Source: Candidatus Parcubacteria bacterium (lineage in GTDB: Bacteria > Patescibacteriota > Minisyncoccia > UBA6257 > JAGOQP01). From it: a stretch of 64,000 bases of DNA. Below the pieces are notes generated by a model that made no database searches, was not told the DNA's origin, and saw nothing but the letters and a program-made list of their open reading frames with translations. Numbering within the stretch: the stretch's first letter is position 1; the number at the start of each line of letters is the position of its first letter. Made by a program: the position numbers and the translations under genes. The stretch is taken from contig AP024682.1 of the NCBI GenBank assembly GCA_025999395.1, positions 301,638 through 365,637 of the forward strand, written 5' to 3'. This document shows, piece after piece, positions 502 through 19,529 of this stretch.

Positions 502-3126
502 ATGTCTTTATTCGACAGAGTCTTTTCTCCTTTAAAAAAATATCGCTCTTGGGTAAAGAAGATAAATGATTTAGAAAAAGAGGTTAGTTTCCTTTCTGAT
601 GAAGAATTAAAGAAGAAAAGTCTTGATTTAAAAGAAAAAATTCAACTTAAAAAAGTTTCTTTAGAAGAAGCTCTTCCTCAAGCTTTTGCTTTGGTAAGAG
701 AAGCAGCTAAAAGAACTCTTGGTCAAAGGCATTATGATGTTCAATTAATGGGAGGGATTGCTTTGTTTGAGGGAAAAATTGCTGAAATGGCAACGGGTGA
801 GGGAAAAACTTTAGCGGCCACCGCTCCCGCTTATCTTTATGGACTAACAGGGAAAGGAGTTCATGTTGTAACGGTCAATGATTATTTGGCTCAAAGAGAC
901 GCGGTTTGGATGGGGCAAATTTATAATTTTTTAGGGCTAACGGTTGGCTGTTTGAGTCATGACGCGGCTTATCTTTACGATGCAGACTATAAAAATCAGC
1001 AACTAGACAAAGAAAGAGACACCAAAGGAAGTTTTGAAGTAGTTCATGAATTTTTGCGACCCGTTTCTCGAAAAGAAGCTTATTTAGCAGATGTTCTTTA
1101 CGGAACCAATCATGAATTTGGTTTTGACTATTTGAGAGATAATTTAGCTTATCACACCGCCGATCAAGTTCAGCGGCGCCTCAGCCAAGAAGAAAAGCCC
1201 TTCTTTTACGCCATTATTGATGAAGTAGATAGCATTCTTATCGATGAAGCGCGTACTCCCTTGATTATTTCTGCTCCTGATACCCAAGCGGCTGATTACT
1301 ACAAGGTTTTTGCCAAAGTAGTTAGTTTTTTGAAGAAAGATGAAGATTATTTGGTGGATGAGAAAAATCATTTTGTTCAAATCACTGAGGCCGGCATTTC
1401 GAAGGTGGAGAAAATGCTGAATCTAAAAGATCTTTACGGTCCTCAAAATATTAAACTAGTTCATTACTTAGAGGAATCTTTAAAGGCTAAAGCGCTTTTT
1501 TTTAGGGATAAACATTACATTGTCAAAAATGGGGAGGTGGTGATAGTTGATGAATTTACTGGTCGGCTAATGTATGGCCGACGCTATTCGGGTGGTCTTC
1601 ATCAAGCCCTAGAGGCAAAAGAAGGAGTAAAAATTCAGGAAGAGTCAAAAACCTTTGCTCAAATCACTATTCAAAACTACTTTAGGCTTTATCAAAAGAT
1701 TGCCGGAATGACTGGAACGGCTCTTACTTCTAAAGAGGAATTTGAGAAAGTTTATGGTTTAGAAGTAGTAGTAATTCCTCCTAATAAACCTTTAATAAGA
1801 AAAGATCATCCCGATTTTATTTTCAAAACTAAAGAGATAAAGTATCGCCAAATAGTAGAAGAAGTAAAAAAGAGAGTTAAAAAAGGGCAGCCAGTTCTTG
1901 TGGGGACTACTTCAATTGAGGAAAACGAAACTCTTTCTTTATATTTTTCTCGAGCAGGGATTAAGCATCAAGTTTTGAATGCTAAGAATCACGAAAAGGA
2001 AGCTGAAATTATTGCTCAAGCGGGAAGAAAGGGAGCGGTGACTTTGGCTACCAATATGGCGGGAAGGGGAGTGGATATTATTTTAGGCGGCAACCCCCCT
2101 GATCCTAAAGAAGCTGAAGAAGTAAGGAAAGCAGGAGGATTGTTTGTATTGGGAACTAACCGTCACGAAGCTCGAAGAATTGACAATCAACTTCGCGGAC
2201 GAGCCGGCAGACAAGGAGATCCGGGAGAAACTCAATTTTTTCTTTCTTTGGAGGATGATTTATTAAGAATTTTTGGGGGAGAAAGAATTCAGCGGCTGAT
2301 GAGCAATTTTAATTTTCCAGAGGATCAGCCGATTCAATCCTCTTTAATTTCTAAAGTTGTTGATGAAGCCCAGAAAAAAGTAGAAGGGATTAATTTTGAT
2401 ATTCGTAAACATCTTTTTGAATTCGATACGGTTTTAAACAAGCAAAGACAAACTATTTATCGCCGTCGGCAGAATCTTTTAGAAAGAATAGAAAAAGGAG
2501 AAACAATTCAGATTGTAAAGGAGTTTATTGGAGATGTGCTGTTTAAAATAATTTCCGAAGAAGACTTTTCTTTTGAAACTAAAGAGGAAGATTTTTCTAA
2601 GGAGCCTCAAGAATCTCGGCCGGACCTTTCTCAAAAAGTTCAAAACTTTCTCTTGTCTTTGGGATTAGTTGAAGAAAAGGCCGAGCCTTTTAAAGAAGAT
2701 GAGTTAGAAAAAATAATAAGCGAAAAAATTTTTCCTGATTCTTTAGAAAAATCAATAGAAGCAAAAGTTTTGGCGGATAATCAGGCAGGATTAAAGATTT
2801 TATCGGCTTTGGATTTTCTCTGGATTGATCACTTAGAAAATTTAGAAGCGCTTTTAGAGGGAGTAAAAATTAGAGCTTATGGACAAAAAGATCCATTAGT
2901 AGAGTATAAAAGAGAAGCTTTTGAAATGTTTAAGGATTTGATTTTTAATTCGGAAATGATTGCTTTAACAAATATTTTTAAAAATGATAAAAAAGTAGAA
3001 GCAAACTTAAATAAAAAAGATTTTTCATTAAACAAAGATATCAACAAAAATTTTAAAAAAGTAGGTAGAAATGAATTATGCCCTTGTGGCTCCGGTAAAA
3101 AATTTAAAAAGTGTCACGGAACATAG
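502..3126 (+). CDS. secA: Preprotein translocase ATPase SecA
   Basis: 874 aa. Has the Walker A motif MATGEGKTL, DEAD-like motor motifs, and a C-terminal zinc-binding tail CPCGSGKKFKKCHG typical of SecA. Confidence 0.95.
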   Translation: MSLFDRVFSPLKKYRSWVKKINDLEKEVSFLSDEELKKKSLDLKEKIQLKKVSLEEALPQAFALVREAAKRTLGQRHYDVQLMGGIALFEGKIAEMATGEGKTLAATAPAYLYGLTGKGVHVVTVNDYLAQRDAVWMGQIYNFLGLTVGCLSHDAAYLYDADYKNQQLDKERDTKGSFEVVHEFLRPVSRKEAYLADVLYGTNHEFGFDYLRDNLAYHTADQVQRRLSQEEKPFFYAIIDEVDSILIDEARTPLIISAPDTQAADYYKVFAKVVSFLKKDEDYLVDEKNHFVQITEAGISKVEKMLNLKDLYGPQNIKLVHYLEESLKAKALFFRDKHYIVKNGEVVIVDEFTGRLMYGRRYSGGLHQALEAKEGVKIQEESKTFAQITIQNYFRLYQKIAGMTGTALTSKEEFEKVYGLEVVVIPPNKPLIRKDHPDFIFKTKEIKYRQIVEEVKKRVKKGQPVLVGTTSIEENETLSLYFSRAGIKHQVLNAKNHEKEAEIIAQAGRKGAVTLATNMAGRGVDIILGGNPPDPKEAEEVRKAGGLFVLGTNRHEARRIDNQLRGRAGRQGDPGETQFFLSLEDDLLRIFGGERIQRLMSNFNFPEDQPIQSSLISKVVDEAQKKVEGINFDIRKHLFEFDTVLNKQRQTIYRRRQNLLERIEKGETIQIVKEFIGDVLFKIISEEDFSFETKEEDFSKEPQESRPDLSQKVQNFLLSLGLVEEKAEPFKEDELEKIISEKIFPDSLEKSIEAKVLADNQAGLKILSALDFLWIDHLENLEALLEGVKIRAYGQKDPLVEYKREAFEMFKDLIFNSEMIALTNIFKNDKKVEANLNKKDFSLNKDINKNFKKVGRNELCPCGSGKKFKKCHGT

Positions 3127-3227
3127 GGATAAAGCAATAATGAAAATTATAATAGTTGGATATTCAAAATTTAGAAAAAATTACCGTTTTTAAATTTAAA
3201 AGGTTTTGTTAATTTTAATTAATCTTT

Positions 3228-4031
3228 TTATGGCTTAATAACACATTCTCCTGTTCCAGAAGCAATCGAACCACAAAGACGATTAGTGGGTGAGATTATT
3301 AAGGAGGAATATAAAGTTCCTGTAGCATTTACACAGGTTCCAGTAGGTGTTCTATAACTTTGGTAAGAACGATTAGCCATTAAAGAAGAGCCAGAATCAT
3401 TATAAACACATGAAGGATAATTATTATAATCTCTTCCCCCTCTCCAGAAAGCTTTTTGATTATGATTTAAAGAAAGACAGTAATAGTAAGAAGGAACTCC
3501 AGCATTATTTCCTGTATAACCTTCTGTTGCGCTAAGTGTTGGCATAGTATAGAAGCCGTTATTTGGAAGATAAACAGTTCCAGAACAATTAGTTGAGGAA
3601 TAATACCATGTAGAAGAAGCTCTTCCTTGAAAGGTGCTGCAATCTCCGGTTATCATATGCTTTTTTTGAAAGTTATTGATATATATTGTGCTATCACAAA
3701 AATTATCTGTTCCGGAGTCATAAAGAAGAACATTATTGGTTGGCATATAATCATATGAATTTCTTTCTCCGAAAATAACAATGGCGATTGTATTTAAAGT
3801 TTGTCCTCCAGCATTAATTCTGCCCCAAAAATCATAAATTCCAAGTACTCCTCCTATTCCTCCAAACTTTCCTACTAGCGTTGTTCCATCTGATTGGTAT
3901 ACATTTAATCGTTTATCGTAAATTGTATAAGAGAAAACTAGATGAGAAAAGAAAATAAAGGTTAAAATAAGGAAAAATAAAAAAATATATCTGATTTTTT
4001 TATTATCTATAAACTTTTTTTTAAATAACAT
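3228..4031 (-). CDS. Secreted/membrane-anchored Cys-rich protein; paralog of the C-terminal domain of the adjacent pilin-like protein
   Basis: Has an N-terminal hydrophobic anchor. Residues about 40-267 align with the C-terminal ~250 aa of ORF 4040..5965, for example LNVYQSDG, KHMITGDCSTFQGRASSTWYYS, YCLSLNHNQKAFWRGG and the ending NRLCGSIASGTGECVIKP. Confidence 0.6.
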   Translation of the reverse strand: MLFKKKFIDNKKIRYIFLFFLILTFIFFSHLVFSYTIYDKRLNVYQSDGTTLVGKFGGIGGVLGIYDFWGRINAGGQTLNTIAIVIFGERNSYDYMPTNNVLLYDSGTDNFCDSTIYINNFQKKHMITGDCSTFQGRASSTWYYSSTNCSGTVYLPNNGFYTMPTLSATEGYTGNNAGVPSYYYCLSLNHNQKAFWRGGRDYNNYPSCVYNDSGSSLMANRSYQSYRTPTGTCVNATGTLYSSLIISPTNRLCGSIASGTGECVIKP

Positions 4032-9821: not shown

Positions 9822-10988
9822 ATGAAGTTTATAAGTCAAATTAAAAAAGAAACAATTAAGGGGAAAACAGCTCTTCTTCTCTTGGATTTAAATATCGAAA
9901 AAAGCGAATGGAAAAACTCTCTCCGGCTGGAAAGAGCAATTAGAGCTATTGATTTTCTTTTAAAAAAAGAAGCTCGAGTAGTGGTTTTGTCTTTTAAAGG
10001 AAGGCCGGATTTGAAGTTGGTTAAAAATAAAGATTATCGCGCTTCCTTTAGTCTTTTTTCAATTGCTCAAGAGATCTCGAAAAGATTAAGAACTTCTTTT
10101 GATTTTGTTGATGATTTTAATTTTAAAAATTGGAAGGAAAAAGTTAAAAAGTCATCTCGGTCATTAATTTTTTTGGAGAATTTAAGATTTTTTAAAGAAG
10201 AAAGAGAAAATTCCTTATCTTTTGGAAAACTTTTAGCGAGTTTGGGAGATTTTTATGTAAATGATGCTTTCTCAGTTTGTCATCGCCAACAAGCTTCGAT
10301 AACGAGAATTCCCAAATTTGTGCCTGCTTATGGAGGTATGGGAATGGAGATAGAACTAAATTCTTTAAAAAGAATTTTTCAAAATCCTCTAAGGCCCGTA
10401 ACTTTGATTGTTGGGGGAGCTAAAGTAGATGATAAGATGAGGGTTATAGAAAATCTTTATCCCAAAGTTGATTCTATTCTTTGTGGGGGAGGAGTGGCCA
10501 ATACTTTGCTGTTTTTTCAAAATCTTCCCGTGGGTTCTTCTTTGGTGGAAAAGGATTTATCTTTCAGAGATTTTTATTTTCGGTTTAAAGAGAAAATAGT
10601 TCTTCCGGTTGATTTTCTTTGGGAAAGGGGAGCAATTTTTGATATTGGTCCCAAAACGATAAAGAAATTTTCTTCTATTATTGATGACTCAAAAACAATT
10701 ATTTGGAGTGGACCGATGGGATTTTTTGAAAAGAAAAATTTTGCTGCTGGGACAAAGGCTTTGGTAAAAAAGATTTTGAAAAGCAAAGCTTTTTGTGTAA
10801 TTGGCGGAGAGCAAACCACCTCTGCTTTTTTAAAGTTTTCAAAAACTGCTTCTAAAAAGATTTCTCGAAATCCTTTTTATTTTAGAAAAAATATCTTTTT
10901 ATCCAGTGGGGGAGGAGCAATGCTTTACTATTTATCATCAGAAAAACTTCCGGGTTTAGTGGCTTTAGAAAATTCTTCTCGCCGTTAG
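9822..10988 (+). CDS. pgk: Phosphoglycerate kinase
   Basis: 388 aa. Has the GGAKVDDK hinge motif and SGPMGFFE near the C-terminus, in a PGK-like arrangement. Confidence 0.85.
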   Translation: MKFISQIKKETIKGKTALLLLDLNIEKSEWKNSLRLERAIRAIDFLLKKEARVVVLSFKGRPDLKLVKNKDYRASFSLFSIAQEISKRLRTSFDFVDDFNFKNWKEKVKKSSRSLIFLENLRFFKEERENSLSFGKLLASLGDFYVNDAFSVCHRQQASITRIPKFVPAYGGMGMEIELNSLKRIFQNPLRPVTLIVGGAKVDDKMRVIENLYPKVDSILCGGGVANTLLFFQNLPVGSSLVEKDLSFRDFYFRFKEKIVLPVDFLWERGAIFDIGPKTIKKFSSIIDDSKTIIWSGPMGFFEKKNFAAGTKALVKKILKSKAFCVIGGEQTTSAFLKFSKTASKKISRNPFYFRKNIFLSSGGGAMLYYLSSEKLPGLVALENSSRR

Positions 10989-14876: not shown

Positions 14877-15599
14877 ATGAAGACAAGAAGATTTTTTCTT
14901 CCTTTTTCATTATCGGGAAAGAAAGAGTTGTTAGTAGCTGATTGGCCAACCTTTAATCGATTAAAGAATGTTTTAAGAATTGAACCGGGAGAGGAAATTA
15001 ATGTTTTTAATTCTCGGGAAGGAGAATACAGGGCAAGAGTAAATCTGTTATCAAAAGAAAAGATAGTTTTGGAAATCTTGGAAAAAAAAGAAAACAAGAG
15101 CGAGCCGGAAATAAAGGTTAATCTTTTTCAGTCAGTGATAAAGAAAGATAAGTTTGAATGGGTGGTAGAAAAATCAACTGAAGCCGGCGTTTCTTCGATT
15201 ACTCCAATTATTACTCAAAGAACTGTTAAAACTAACCTTAACTTTGAAAGATTAAAAAAAATTGCTCAAGAAGCCACCGAGCAATCGGGTAGAATTTTAG
15301 TTCCTCAAATAAATGAAATTTTAGATTTTGAGGATTTAATGAAGAAGAAAAGTTTATCTTTAAAAAACAATTCTTTTTCTTTTCTTTTGGATTTTTCTGG
15401 TAAGCCGATAAGAGAGGTAATTTCTAAGATTAAAAAATTTGAAGAAGTTAATTTTTTTGTTGGTCCAGAGGGAGGATTTAGCGAGGAAGAAATTGATTTG
15501 GCAAAAAACGAAGGAGTGGAGATCTTAAGTTTTGGTCCGAGAATTTTTAGAAGTGAAACAATAGGAGCAGTGGTAACTGCTTTTATTTTAAATGTTTAG
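14877..15599 (+). CDS. rsmE: 16S rRNA (uracil1498-N3)-methyltransferase RsmE family
   Basis: 240 aa. Has an N-terminal PUA-like region and a C-terminal SPOUT knot region (VGPEGGFSEEE). Confidence 0.75.
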   Translation: MKTRRFFLPFSLSGKKELLVADWPTFNRLKNVLRIEPGEEINVFNSREGEYRARVNLLSKEKIVLEILEKKENKSEPEIKVNLFQSVIKKDKFEWVVEKSTEAGVSSITPIITQRTVKTNLNFERLKKIAQEATEQSGRILVPQINEILDFEDLMKKKSLSLKNNSFSFLLDFSGKPIREVISKIKKFEEVNFFVGPEGGFSEEEIDLAKNEGVEILSFGPRIFRSETIGAVVTAFILNV

Positions 15600-15616
15600 T
15601 ATTTTTTAAAAATTCT

Positions 15617-17107
15617 TTAAGTACCTGATTTACTTTCCAAGTTTTTTTTATTTATTTTTTCTAACTTAGATATTAATAGTTCAATAGCGCTCTTTGGAAA
15701 AAAGTTTTTTATTTTCCCTTTTTCAAAAAAAAGATCTTTTTTTCTTATATTTTGCCAAAAGATGGGTATTGAATATGAAGCTATTTCTTTTGTTTCATAA
15801 CTAATAATTTTTTCTAGATTTTCATTACTTATAAGATGGTTTTTTTTGCTATTTTCTCGAAGTATTTTTTTTATTTTTCTTTTAAATTTATTTAACTGCA
15901 AATTAAATGGTTGGATAAGATTTTGTTCGATAAGGGTATAGAGTGAAGTTCTTCTTACTATTACTCTTGTAAGAGTATCTTGATAGGAATCTATAATCTT
16001 GTAAATTTTTTCCTTGTTTTTTTCTATCCAAAGATAAGAATCTTTAAATCCTTTTATCATCTCGTTTTTAAAACTTTCTGGTTTCCATAATTTTCTATTT
16101 TTTTTAAAGATTCTGTTTTCTAATTTTATTTTACTGTAAGTTCTGTATTTTATTCTCATGAGATCAGTATTTTTAAATAGGATTATTGGATTTGCCAGAC
16201 TTATTATTTTCTTGTTTCCACCAAAAATAGCACTTGTTAACTGTTTACTTTTTCTTTTTTCGATTATTCCGGTAGATTCTAAGCTGTTTTCTATTTTTTT
16301 GTTTTTGTAGAAAGAAAAATTTGTGAATAAACTTTCAAAATCTAAAATGATTGGCTTTTCTTTGGAAGCGATTAAATTTTCCATATGGAAATCAGATCCA
16401 TTAAGTGAGTAAATCAAAGCTAAAATCTGCCCCAGTTGATAATAAAATTTTTTTGCTTGAAGAAAAGAAATGTTTTTATTTTTTGTTTGAATAAATTCTG
16501 AATACCACCCATCTTTTGTTTCTAAACTTTTAGGTATTTTAATTTGGATCTCGTTTTCTTTGTTGAATCTATTTATTATTTCAATAAAACTTTTTGCTTT
16601 TGAAAATTGATGCGGATTATATTTGATTATTTTTTGATTATCGAGAATGAAAAAAATTACTCTTCTCCCTTTTGTGTGTCTATCTGATTGGGTGGGTATT
16701 TTTATATATTTTATTTTTTTGAATTTTACTTTGAAAAAGTCGGAAATTAAATTTTTGTTGTTTAAAAATTTTTCTAACGAATCAAATAAAAAAAGAACGT
16801 CTTCTTCAAGAATTTTTTTTATTAATTTATAAAGTGAGGGAAAATTTTTTAAAAAGGTTTCTTTTTTTGAGAAGATAAAATTCTTAAATCTCTCCCTTGT
16901 ATTTTTTCCTAATATCGAACCTTTCGATTTATCTAAATAAAGTTGCCAACAGAGAGTAGGTAAAATAATTTTTTCTACTTCGTTATTCAGATATTTTTTT
17001 ATTTCTTTGTTGAAAAGATCTTGATTTTCGATTATTCCTCTGAGTAAGACCGAAAAGTGTTTATTAATTATTTTCTGTATCAATTCTTGGTAAAGAATTT
17101 TTATCAT
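15617..17107 (-). CDS. Standalone LanM-type dehydratase-domain (DUF4135-like, lipid-kinase-like) protein
   Basis: 496 aa and very AT-rich. Contains DFHMEN with an Asp 12 residues further on (LDFESLF). This reproduces the D-x-H-x-x-N...D catalytic/activation-loop spacing reported for class II lanthipeptide synthetase dehydratase domains. No LanC cyclase domain is present. Confidence 0.5.
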   Translation of the reverse strand: MIKILYQELIQKIINKHFSVLLRGIIENQDLFNKEIKKYLNNEVEKIILPTLCWQLYLDKSKGSILGKNTRERFKNFIFSKKETFLKNFPSLYKLIKKILEEDVLFLFDSLEKFLNNKNLISDFFKVKFKKIKYIKIPTQSDRHTKGRRVIFFILDNQKIIKYNPHQFSKAKSFIEIINRFNKENEIQIKIPKSLETKDGWYSEFIQTKNKNISFLQAKKFYYQLGQILALIYSLNGSDFHMENLIASKEKPIILDFESLFTNFSFYKNKKIENSLESTGIIEKRKSKQLTSAIFGGNKKIISLANPIILFKNTDLMRIKYRTYSKIKLENRIFKKNRKLWKPESFKNEMIKGFKDSYLWIEKNKEKIYKIIDSYQDTLTRVIVRRTSLYTLIEQNLIQPFNLQLNKFKRKIKKILRENSKKNHLISNENLEKIISYETKEIASYSIPIFWQNIRKKDLFFEKGKIKNFFPKSAIELLISKLEKINKKNLESKSGT

Positions 17108-17131
17108 TTCTTAATCTTTTTGTTGGATTTT

Positions 17132-17296
17132 TTAACTGCAGGTTCCTGTACCACAACATTTGGTTGAGCTAAACGATCCTATTTCTTTCAGGATTTTTTT
17201 ACTGTTTATGTTTATTTGATCAAATCCGGTTGGATGATATCCTTGGAATTTTTTTCCTTTCTTCCAAACTTTAATTGCTTTTTTTATTTTTTTCAT
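17132..17296 (-). CDS. Unannotated 54-aa ORF with a Lys-rich leader and a Ser/Thr/Cys-rich C-terminus: candidate RiPP precursor
   Basis: Manual translation of the minus strand gives MKKIKKAIKVWKKGKKFQGYHPTGFDQININSKKILKEIGSFSSTKCCGTGTCS. The stop lies 24 nt upstream of the dehydratase-like gene on the same strand. The ORF is below the cutoff of the supplied ORF track. Confidence 0.4.
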   Translation of the reverse strand: MKKIKKAIKVWKKGKKFQGYHPTGFDQININSKKILKEIGSFSSTKCCGTGTCS

Positions 17297-17379
17297 TTTG
17301 TTAGAATTGTTAGTGATAAACTATAATTGCAAACTAAATACAAATCTCTGATGATTTTAGTAGTCTTACTGAATTTAGT

Positions 17380-17871
17380 ATGCCAAAAATTTCTAAAATT
17401 TCAAGTTGCTTGAGATTGGTGAAATTAAAAAAAACTATTGTTGATAACAAAAACGACTTAGAGAAATTGGTTAACTTTGTTTATTCTTATTTTACTAAAA
17501 TAGAGAAAAAGAAAATATCTTTAGAAAGGATAAAGGACGGAATTTTAAAAAATTTAAAGAATCATCGTCACGTTTATTTTTTTATTCTTTGGGATAATTA
17601 CCCAATAGGAATGCTTCATCTTTTTTTAGGCGAAAAGTTTACAGATTTGTGCTTAATTTATCTTGAAAAAGAATTTAGAAGAAAGGGTTTAGGATCTTTT
17701 GTTTTTAATCTTTTAAAGAATTTTCTTGAAGAAAATAGATTAACTAAGAAGCCTTTGTGCATTGAAATAAACAAAAATAACAAAGCTTCTCAAAGGTTTT
17801 TTTCTAAAATGGGGGCAAAATTAGAGAGCGTGATTTACTTTTATCAGCTTTCTTCTAAAAATAACATTTAG
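17380..17871 (+). CDS. GNAT family N-acetyltransferase
   Basis: 163 aa. Has an acetyl-CoA binding motif RRKGLGS and a C-terminal FFSKMGAK. Confidence 0.7.
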   Translation: MPKISKISSCLRLVKLKKTIVDNKNDLEKLVNFVYSYFTKIEKKKISLERIKDGILKNLKNHRHVYFFILWDNYPIGMLHLFLGEKFTDLCLIYLEKEFRRKGLGSFVFNLLKNFLEENRLTKKPLCIEINKNNKASQRFFSKMGAKLESVIYFYQLSSKNNI

Positions 17872-17972
17872 ATACCTTTTGGTTATTAGTTGCCATTAGC
17901 TGCTGGCTATCAATTGAATAACTTAAAAAATTACTCTTTGTGTTTGTGGAAGGTAGAAAATGTACTAATTAG

Positions 17973-18043
17973 CTGCGGGGCTAGGATTCGAACCTAGATA
18001 CCAGCGTCCAGAGCGCTGTGTCCTACCATTAGACGACCCCGCA
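17973..18043 (-). tRNA. tRNA-Gln (anticodon CUG)
   Basis: Acceptor UGCGGGG/CCCCGCA with a U1-A72 pair and G73 discriminator, as in bacterial tRNA-Gln. Anticodon stem CAGCG/CGCTG with loop CTCTGGA. T-arm CTAGG-TTCGAAT-CCTAG. Confidence 0.8.
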
Positions 18044-18122
18044 ATTTTTATTTGTTTATCTTATAATCATTTTTTTTGAATTGCAAATTTCTTGGTTTTC
18101 TAAATTTTTGTTATAATCTTAC

Positions 18123-19529
18123 TTGCTTATGAAAGATAGCTTTCCTGAATTAGAAAAGAGAGAACTACCTTCCCCTTTATCTTGGAAAAAAGCGTTAGGG
18201 GTAGGGGTGGTAGTAATGGGAATGGCGGTAGGCACAGGAGAAATAATTCTCTGGCCTCATTTGGTCACAAAACATGGCTTAAACATTCTTTGGATGGCTC
18301 TTTTGGGGATTACTTCTCAATATTTTATCAACAAAGAGGTGGCTCGTTACACTTTAGCAACGGGGGAAAGTTTTTTTACTGCCTCGGCAAGAGTTTTTAA
18401 ATGGCTTGTTCCTTTTTGGTTTTTTTCGGCGATTATTCTTTACATTTGGCCGGGTTGGGCGGCAGCGTTAGGAACAATCTTAAAAGAACTTTTTAATTTT
18501 GGAAGTTATTACTTTTGGTCGCTGATTGTTTTGGGTTTAGTGCTTTTGATTACTTTTTTGGGAAGAGTAGCTTACAATGTTTTGGAAAAAAGCTTAAAAA
18601 TTGTTGTTCCCACCTTTATTTTAATGCTTTTGGTGATTAGCTTTTTTAACTTAAACTGGTCTCTTTTAATGGAAGCCTTAAGAGGCCTTTTTAGTTTTGG
18701 AAGTTTTCCTAAAGAGATTGATATCAATGTTTTGCTGGGAGCTATTGTTTTTACCGGTGCGGGAGGAATGTTGAATCTCTGCGTTTCTTTGTGGTATCGA
18801 GACAAACAATTAGGAATGTGTGCTTACGGAGAAAAAATTACCAATCCGATTTCCGGGAAAACCACTTCTTCTTTGACGAAGGGTTATATTTTTGAAACTA
18901 ATCCTCAAAATTTAGAAAAATGGAGGGGGTGGATGAAGTATGTAAAAGTGGATCAGGGAATTATCTTTTGGCTAACAGGACTGATTGCGCTTTTTCTTTT
19001 GGTGGTCAATGCTTATGCAGTTTTAAAACCGCAAGGAATAGTACCAGAAGGTCTTCAATTGGCGGTGGTTCAAGCTCATATTTTTGGGCAGAAACTAGGA
19101 AAGTTTGGCTTCGATTTGTTTTTAATAATGACTTTTTTGATGCTTTTTTCGGTAATGTGGACAGTGATCGATGCTTTAACTCGGATTATTAGTGATATTC
19201 TTTATACTAATTCCCGAATCGGCCCTTTTTCTCGTTTTTTGAAATTTTTTAGCAATATTCCGCTAAATTTTTTCTACTATGGAATTATTGTTTTGATAGT
19301 AATTGCGGGAGCTCTCTTAATCCCTCTAAAACAACCTTTGGCTTTTTTGGTTCTTTCTGGAGCCTTGGGAGGACTTTCAATGGCGATTTATACACCTCTT
19401 TTGATTTATATTAACAATCGTCTTTTGCCTAAAGAAATTAGACCAGATTGGAAAACTAATTTGGTAATGACAATCATCTCTATTTTTTATATAATCTTTT
19501 CACTAAGAATTATCGAAAGCTATTTTTAG
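18123..19529 (+). CDS. Polytopic membrane transporter of unknown specificity (APC/Nramp-fold-like)
   Basis: 468 aa with about 11-12 hydrophobic helices. No diagnostic motif was seen. Confidence 0.4.
   Translation: MLMKDSFPELEKRELPSPLSWKKALGVGVVVMGMAVGTGEIILWPHLVTKHGLNILWMALLGITSQYFINKEVARYTLATGESFFTASARVFKWLVPFWFFSAIILYIWPGWAAALGTILKELFNFGSYYFWSLIVLGLVLLITFLGRVAYNVLEKSLKIVVPTFILMLLVISFFNLNWSLLMEALRGLFSFGSFPKEIDINVLLGAIVFTGAGGMLNLCVSLWYRDKQLGMCAYGEKITNPISGKTTSSLTKGYIFETNPQNLEKWRGWMKYVKVDQGIIFWLTGLIALFLLVVNAYAVLKPQGIVPEGLQLAVVQAHIFGQKLGKFGFDLFLIMTFLMLFSVMWTVIDALTRIISDILYTNSRIGPFSRFLKFFSNIPLNFFYYGIIVLIVIAGALLIPLKQPLAFLVLSGALGGLSMAIYTPLLIYINNRLLPKEIRPDWKTNLVMTIISIFYIIFSLRIIESYF

Follow-up and report, generated by a model that had tools for sequence, protein, structure and literature searches.

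The stretch of DNA examined here (the window; 64,000 nucleotides of Candidatus Parcubacteria bacterium, assembly GCA_025999395.1, contig AP024682.1, positions 301,638 to 365,637 of the forward strand) contains three adjoining genes that resemble a minimal biosynthetic locus for a ribosomally made, post-translationally modified peptide (RiPP). The largest open reading frame (ORF), at 15617..17107 on the minus strand, encodes a LanM-type dehydratase of 496 amino acids (aa) without a LanC cyclase domain. Directly upstream on the same strand, 24 nt from the start codon of the enzyme, lies a 54-aa ORF (17132..17296) whose product (MKKIKKAIKVWKKGKKFQGYHPTGFDQININSKKILKEIGSFSSTKCCGTGTCS, with the C-terminal end SFSSTKCCGTGTCS) looks like a precursor peptide. 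The third gene is divergent to the other two and encodes a 163-aa GNAT acetyltransferase on the plus strand (17380..17871; PF00583, E 5.7e-10). All three genes had been proposed in an original prediction made from the DNA letters alone and were found where it had placed them. The small ORF, which that prediction regarded as missing from gene calls, is in fact on record: an identical peptide (P0019) is present in the gene calls of NCBI, JGI, and Logan.

Residues 89–450 of the 496-aa protein matched PF13575 (DUF4135) with E 4.7e-54, and no other Pfam domain was present. The protein also matched TIGR03897, the LanM model (E 3.3e-71), only across model positions 11–510 of 932 and with 240 bits versus a cut-off of 304. 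From this partial coverage and sub-cut-off score it follows that the window enzyme lacks the cyclase half. As the defining C-terminal domain was looked for and is absent, the enzyme is not classed as a LanM. When the PDB was searched by sequence (phmmer), only LicM2 (6st5; 1.4e-22) and CylM (5dzt; 2e-19) were retrieved. The AlphaFold2 model of the enzyme (pLDDT 77, pTM 0.79) led to the same two proteins when submitted to Foldseek, LicM2 with E 1.7e-20 and CylM with E 3.4e-19 (TMq 0.71 for both), followed at a distance by PI3K-type lipid kinases. By family assignment, predicted fold, and catalytic residues (see below), the protein is a class II lanthipeptide synthetase reduced to its dehydratase half, with no LanC domain.

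Catalytic residues were matched through the HMMER alignment of the window enzyme to CylM, and their roles were taken from the literature (PMC4550811). The motif D239-F-H-M-E-N244 and the Asp of LDFES 12 residues past N244 (D256), which had first drawn attention to the protein, correspond to the phosphorylation residues of CylM (D239/H241/N244/D256 to D347/H349/N352/D364). Likewise, the residues required for phosphate elimination are present, D142/H144/R381/T387 corresponding to CylM D252/H254/R506/T512. All eight are invariant in the alignment of the enzyme family (A1) and in that of a distant second subfamily (A5). The retained elimination residues matter because it is their loss that makes EmbM, the phospeptin enzyme, a pure kinase; its substrate, EmbA, contains no Cys (PMC9505594). 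EmbM and the window enzyme have in common that they are cyclase-less, LanM-like, and encoded in minimal clusters of uncultivated bacteria. As EmbM is a documented case of such an enzyme that only phosphorylates, and as LanM chemistry in general runs through phosphorylated intermediates (PMC4550811), the window enzyme could in principle also leave phospho-Ser/Thr on its peptide, with neither dehydro residues nor rings being formed. With D142, H144, R381, and T387 invariant, unlike in EmbM, and with three invariant Cys in the core of the peptide, this is the least probable of the alternatives considered here.

The small ORF has homologues that adjoin the enzyme gene in every related locus, and together they form a peptide family of 12 clusters. 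Where the divergent GNAT gene is also present (see below), the peptides can be aligned from end to end (A2/A3): behind a basic N-terminus come W-x-x-G-x-x-x-x-G-[FY]-H-P-T-G-[FY]-x-x-I and L-E-K-L, and the tail reads S-T-K-C-C-[AG]-[TS]-G-T-C, which is the CCGTGTC-like ending for which a search of related loci had been recommended. In the window peptide, this core is S44-T45-K46-C47-C48-G49-T50-G51-T52-C53 (17138..17167, minus strand). S44, C47, C48, G51, T52, and C53 are invariant in the alignments, T45 and K46 nearly so, and neither enzyme nor leader is as well conserved as the core as a whole. At the nucleotide level, 8 of the 10 core codons differ only synonymously among 11 loci (e.g., AGT/TCA for Ser or TGC/TGT for Cys), and the other two vary only between A and G and between T and S, respectively. 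Thus, the 54-aa ORF, to judge from its codons, is under purifying selection at the protein level. A chance ORF was considered and rejected, the peptide being kept at all related loci and the changes in its core being synonymous. Each Cys is preceded, exactly three residues before it and in all members, by Ser or Thr (S44→C47, T45→C48, T50→C53), and at the hydroxyl positions of the core Ser and Thr are exchanged for one another among members. Lys46 is invariant in peptides linked to a GNAT; K, M, or Q is found there in peptides without one. No GG/GA leader site precedes the core of these peptides, and AlphaFold predicted no fold for the window peptide alone (pLDDT 55). The proposed architecture of leader plus core is supported by the constant proximity to the enzyme gene and by selection on the core, and the small ORF behaves like the cognate precursor of the enzyme.

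Close homologues of the enzyme are rare: a word search of 5.8 billion proteins yielded nine, which are 42–48% identical, all of ∼500 aa, and all composed of DUF4135 only. BCX16058.1, which has the same length (496 aa) and falls into the same 90% cluster as the window enzyme, is annotated as "hypothetical protein KatS3mg098_287" of Candidatus Parcubacteria bacterium. When a profile of the enzyme family was run against a library of 1.84 billion representative sequences, the best 13 matches measured 480–534 aa, with full-length LanMs ranking next. Wherever upstream DNA exists, the same order was found, i.e., a divergent GNAT gene, then an ORF of 54–67 aa, then the DUF4135 gene. This trio occupies about ten distinct Patescibacteria loci (the window, L001=L002=L011, L003=L004~L026, L005, L007, L009, L010~L022, L023-25, and L027), the flanks of which are unrelated and contain, depending on the locus, genes for RsmE, VKOR, MFS, SfsA, DUF488, a reductase, or MacB. 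At one of them (L009, bacterium HR35), large proteins made of repeated "KDNKWYVQINDKSYGPYD" units are encoded on both sides of the module region (1802..3769 and 9936..10811). A 100%-identical copy of enzyme residues 95–493 was encountered on a short contig (L008; JAWAET010000069.1, 4094 bp) in a metagenome-assembled genome named "Candidatus Pacearchaeota archaeon"; since Fmt, Def, and RsmE mark the window as bacterial, this contig is probably mis-binned.

The GNAT is a single domain with the acyl-CoA P-loop R-R-K-G-L-G (R-x-x-G-x-G). Each of the Patescibacteria loci has an orthologue at the same place (phmmer 3e-31 to 2e-19), which supports the GNAT as the conserved third partner of peptide and enzyme. 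Its closest relatives of solved structure are the N-alpha-acetyltransferases NAA40 and RimI (E 6e-4 to 3e-3).

Searching with the peptide profile also revealed peptides with a short leader, e.g., MSGIEQMTGYDELLNHVSLGEFSHLASVASTKCCATGTCDD. These adjoin stand-alone DUF4135 proteins of 533–559 aa, which are only 17–21% identical to the window enzyme and nevertheless keep every catalytic residue. Their core is [ST]-T-[KM]-C-C-A-T-G-T-C, and their tail has the form ...CCATGTCD.. (loci L019 6356..9846, L029 8001..11723, L030 3895..7627, and L032 7247..10991). In this second subfamily, the peptide gene lies upstream or downstream of the enzyme gene, and a gene for an ABC half-transporter of 610–636 aa follows directly; neither a GNAT nor a LanC was found in these loci. 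The exporter is devoid of a C39 domain, and its entire length shows homology to the ABC protein encoded at a classical LanM locus (L014; E 2.5e-43). The unit common to both subfamilies is, hence, a stand-alone dehydratase plus a [ST]-T-[KM]-C-C-A-T-G-T-C peptide, with either an acyltransferase or an exporter as the accessory component. The second subfamily suggests that use of this core peptide extends beyond Patescibacteria. L029 also carries genes of a chlamydial-type type III secretion system (CdsD, CesT), and L019 also carries UPF0137/ParA. A gene of the threonyl/alanyl-tRNA-synthetase type (tRNA_SAD) was observed near the DUF4135/peptide pair at L019 (2549..4471) and L020 (1..462); its occurrence in two unrelated loci of the short-leader or an intermediate type may be a coincidence.

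The nearest other stand-alone DUF4135 proteins stand behind obvious NHLP-type RiPP precursors. In Chryseobacterium ginsenosidimutans (L015 6859..9218) and a member of the Flavobacteriaceae (L018 5009..8903), a DUF4135 protein of 485–490 aa is encoded after two such precursors each, which contain the cleavage motif ...ELTxEQLExxAGG; the DUF4135 gene of L018 precedes the beginning of a C39-peptidase-like gene. Both loci are proteusin-like clusters of Bacteroidota that encode a cyclase-less LanM dehydratase.

Taken together, the three genes are interpreted, with somewhat better than even confidence, as a RiPP-like module located in an AT-rich island among housekeeping genes, its product being made by dehydration, ring formation without a cyclase, and acylation by the GNAT. 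The substrate would be the 54-aa peptide, the basic and conserved N-terminal ∼43 residues of which would serve as the recognition (leader) element and S-T-K-C-C-G-T-G-T-C as the core. The stand-alone enzyme would use ATP to phosphorylate Ser/Thr of the core via D239/H241/N244/D256, and would then eliminate the phosphate via D142/H144/R381/T387, yielding dehydroalanine and dehydrobutyrine. This dehydration is strongly indicated by homology, by retention of the residues for phosphorylation and elimination, and by the interchange of Ser and Thr at the hydroxyl positions. The Cys thiols would subsequently add to the dehydro residues (Dhx) to close three (methyl)lanthionine rings of small size, of which the first and second would be intertwined; the three Dhx-x-x-Cys rings are proposed because each Cys has a Ser/Thr three residues before it, and both thioether formation and this ring pattern are put forward with moderate confidence. 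No dedicated LanC cyclase would take part in ring closure, which would be spontaneous or would use the enzyme as a template. From biomimetic lanthionine chemistry, small lanthionine rings of this spacing can close spontaneously. Non-enzymatic cyclization is noted to compete and to lose stereocontrol (PMC13060382). In the last step, the product would be acylated by the GNAT; the most plausible site is Lys46 of the core or an alpha-amine, an assignment that is weak.

Several observations weigh against this interpretation and have to be set beside what favors it. The first concerns the kinase lysine. Asn164 of the window enzyme (codon AAT, 16616..16618, minus strand) sits where CylM has K274, and Lys is found there in all other members of the family, in both subfamilies, save relatives that are 99% identical and also have Asn. 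Since one of these, P0001, was obtained independently, a sequencing error does not account for the Asn. (P0001 is 500 aa long and ends differently, with ...KIRYLK... instead of the ...SKSGT encoded at 15617..15640 of the window, which suggests a small indel or frameshift difference between the strains.) In a leave-one-out test, K164N was private to this lineage. In total, the window enzyme differs privately at 22 columns that are otherwise invariant, mostly by conservative changes. CylM K274A keeps only a small amount of activity (PMC4550811); with Asn164, activity may be reduced in this genome unless K162 compensates, which it might, as it is two residues away on the same β-strand in the predicted structure. 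Second, the window peptide has the most divergent leader, which deviates from otherwise conserved positions (INW→INI and V.KLEKL→K.ILKEI). Together with the GC difference to the host, which is the largest of any locus, these features could indicate that the module was recently acquired by this lineage and is decaying or inactive there, having lost its catalytic lysine, while being functional elsewhere. This is unlikely, if the least so of the alternatives: no damage is seen in the ORFs, the core, or any other catalytic residue, the private substitutions are mostly conservative, near-identical copies of the module genes persist in several independent assemblies, and, apart from the proximity of K162, CylM K274A still makes some product. 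A third point is the conservation of both leader and core, which is unusually high for a RiPP of the antibiotic type.

Further points concern what is missing from the loci. When the C-terminal LanC domains from three full-length LanMs were made into a hidden Markov model (HMM), its best E was 0.9 across the 64-kb window and all loci (∼20, of both subfamilies), the sensitivity of this shallow, three-sequence model being limited; PF05147 does not occur in the precomputed Pfam lists of the loci. Leader protease, GG cleavage site, and exporter are all absent from the Patescibacteria loci, the only match to the exporter in the window being an UvrA-like protein, through its ATPase domains alone. The DNA covered amounted to 64 kb of a genome of ∼0.56 Mb and to no more than 10 kb around the other loci, and a LanC could lie elsewhere in the ∼0.56 Mb. 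Biosynthetic genes do occur split or unlinked, and the pathway could then be an ordinary class II-like one served by a distant LanC or by an unrecognized cyclase. Despite this, the conserved partners are always the GNAT or the ABC exporter and never a cyclase, no LanC-like ORF appeared in the window or in any of the other loci, and the genomes measure only ∼0.56–0.68 Mb, which makes an unlinked cyclase distinctly unlikely, though a little less so than the kinase-only case.

The last point is the resemblance of the core to a metalloid-binding site. When the C-terminal 28 residues were compared with the PDB, the only sequences matched were ArsD N-termini, at a best E of 0.11 (range 0.11–2.5), which is not significant; Pfam ArsD (PF06953) reached 0.065 in 2 of 13 peptide members. 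The spacing F-D-x-x-x-C-C-x-T-G-x-C is shared by the peptide and ArsD (F-D-P-A-M-C-C-[SP]-T-G-[VL]-C), and the Cys of the core align with the As(III) ligands Cys12, Cys13, and Cys18. The CC-x-T-G-x-C match suggests that the thiols might stay free, in which case As(III), Zn, or Cu would be chelated by the tail together with a conserved His, the enzyme would modify or regulate the peptide through phosphorylation or dehydration of the flanking Ser/Thr, and no lanthionine would be formed. Such a peptide would fit the near-invariance of the core beside enzymes that diverge widely, as would be expected of a fixed chemical function, and the lack of cyclase, protease, and exporter at the Patescibacteria loci. 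On the other hand, only the short motif is shared: the ∼110-aa thioredoxin-like domain of ArsD is missing, as are ars genes nearby. Moreover, the Ser/Thr at position −3 of the first two Cys are invariant here and absent from ArsD, and they co-occur with a dehydratase in which the elimination residues are retained, and in the second subfamily the peptide is paired with an exporter. A free-thiol binder of metals or metalloids, although the main competing reading, is improbable, ranking just behind decay of the window copy.

The leader has a similarity of its own. Its residues 10–41 (17174..17269, minus strand) correspond to the pattern W..G....G.HP(S/T)GY.E(V/I)....V.(E/K)LE.L, and a stretch of 29–30 residues (for example, WkkGkkykgfhPtGYneinwstvrkLekl) aligns with residues ∼62–93 of the archaeal ribosomal protein eL32. 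The profile of the peptide family retrieved four archaeal eL32 chains from the PDB (E 2.7e-4 to 1.4e-3), and 17 of its 21 PDB matches with E<10 were eL32. PF01655 was the top Pfam family in 9 of 13 peptide members (best E 8.6e-4). The window peptide by itself reached E 0.12 and 13 bits, versus a cut-off of 25, over positions 43–74 of 108. Compared with full eL32, the likeness thus spans ∼30 of the 108 Pfam positions, remains below the gathering threshold, and occurs in a bacterium. Because no such similarity was found for the short-leader subfamily alone, it is confined to the long leader of the Patescibacteria type. It may reflect a protein-derived leader, as NHLP and Nif11 are, or convergence. 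JGI labels three peptides of 59–60 aa (P0014, P0016, and P0017) as "ribosomal protein L32E", very probably a mis-annotation that arose from the short eL32-like stretch.

The original prediction also described the block as AT-rich and as abutting a tRNA gene, in line with horizontal acquisition. The former is evident: module GC is 0.247, versus 0.351 in the rest of the window. Regarding acquisition, module GC (0.20–0.25) is lower than that of the flanks at all ten loci, which together with the unrelated flanks fits lateral spread among Patescibacteria. What did not hold up is the role of the tRNA. A tRNA-Gln(CTG) is located at 17972..18043 on the minus strand (ARAGORN) as a neighbor of the module; there is no tRNA beside the module at any other locus, so its adjacency is peculiar to this genome. 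An integrative element at this tRNA was considered and rejected: only AT-rich low-complexity matches were present, with neither att-like repeats nor a duplicated tRNA end, and no integrase was found nearby. The remaining neighbors in the window are housekeeping genes (PGK, RNase H, IMPDH, RsmE, DoxX, SOD, Fmt, and Def). Just beyond the tRNA, a clearly polytopic membrane protein of 468 aa is encoded (18123..19529, plus strand), which has no Pfam match at E<1 and is not kept beside the module at other loci.

The 83 bp between the peptide operon and the GNAT gene (17297..17379) presumably hold both promoters, judged from position alone; promoter-like matches are no more frequent there than in shuffled sequences. 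A terminator-like hairpin with a T-run (15566..15581, minus strand) is located 36 nt past the stop codon of the enzyme gene. It is the sole such site in 15400..18200, which is weak evidence, as ∼0.9 are expected by chance.

With respect to known systems, the window enzyme shares with the LanMs CylM (5DZT) and LicM2 (6ST5) the dehydratase domain, the lipid-kinase-like fold, and the phosphorylation and four elimination residues, and Ser/Thr and Cys likewise occur in the C-terminal core of its putative substrate. It differs in lacking the C-terminal LanC domain (at 496 aa), a GG/GA leader site, and a C39-ABC transporter, and in having Asn for the kinase Lys. The view that a dehydratase-only LanM relative would be an undescribed RiPP logic does not stand, given that PoyF, EmbM, and HomMD are published and that clusters of precursor, LanM, and GNAT are known. 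PoyF is the cyclase-less LanM-type dehydratase of polytheonamide (proteusin) biosynthesis and HomMD ("LanMD") a cyclase-less LanM relative in the hominicin daptide cluster; both consist of DUF4135 only and act on a ribosomal precursor without a cyclase. A DUF4135-only enzyme encoded beside a precursor-like peptide is likewise found here. However, theirs are large multi-enzyme clusters in which the dehydro residues are not captured by Cys, whereas the cluster described here is minimal (peptide, enzyme, and GNAT or ABC exporter) and its core has three invariant Cys. Pfam shows no similarity of the trio peptides to NHLP, and no NHLP-type or daptide-type leader was found in them; radical-SAM or other tailoring enzymes of the proteusin type are not encoded beside the window module, where the neighbors are housekeeping genes. 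The npu/nostolysamide and selidamide clusters comprise the same three kinds of genes (precursor, LanM, and GNAT), and their GNAT acylates the side chain of a core Lys (or Orn); the core Lys is invariant here in GNAT-linked peptides. In contrast to the dehydratase-only enzyme and the single GNAT domain of 147–163 aa nearest to N-alpha-acetyltransferases found here, those clusters have a full-length LanM with a cyclase, NHLP/Nif11 leaders, and a tandem-GNAT enzyme. CcaM (LanMbC; dehydrazoles), finally, consists of DUF4135 fused to a zinc-free cyclase domain of the class III type that is needed for activity; it requires prior azole formation by YcaO and acts independently of a leader, and there the DUF4135 dehydratase gives dehydro residues without lanthionine.

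Dehydratase-only relatives of LanM were already known; still unusual is that three core Cys are invariant and that no cyclase was found at any locus. Literature searches that joined Patescibacteria (candidate phyla radiation, CPR) with lanthipeptides and RiPPs yielded no description of the module, and the core motif (KCCATGTC, CCATGTCD) gave no match when searched in full texts. The features not found described are a near-invariant core rich in Cys in the absence of a cyclase, so small a set of genes, a leader resembling eL32, and an occurrence both in Patescibacteria and in loci that carry chlamydial-type genes. It is conceivable, though doubtful as a whole, that these loci represent an unrecognized RiPP family of host-dependent bacteria (Patescibacteria/CPR and the loci with chlamydial-type type III secretion genes), in which a cyclase-less LanM-type dehydratase would act on a near-invariant [ST]-T-K-C-C-A-T-G-T-C core to give either cyclase-free thioether rings or a dehydro/thiol peptide that binds metals or metalloids. 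In that event, the CPR leader would derive from a fragment of archaeal eL32 and would be a third type of protein-derived leader after NHLP and Nif11.

The module provides a natural minimal test of whether a LanM dehydratase domain alone suffices for lanthionine rings on a Dhx-x-x-Cys substrate, and it poses the question of how an enzyme recognizes a leader that resembles a fragment of a ribosomal protein. With a peptide of 54 aa, an enzyme of 496 aa, and a GNAT of 163 aa, the system is small enough for direct reconstitution in E. coli. Patescibacteria have genomes of ∼0.6 Mb with very few recognizable natural-product genes. That the module is kept across many such small genomes implies a product important for episymbiotic life rather than an accessory antibiotic, and the case for an important product is strengthened by the core, whose conservation exceeds that of both enzyme and leader.

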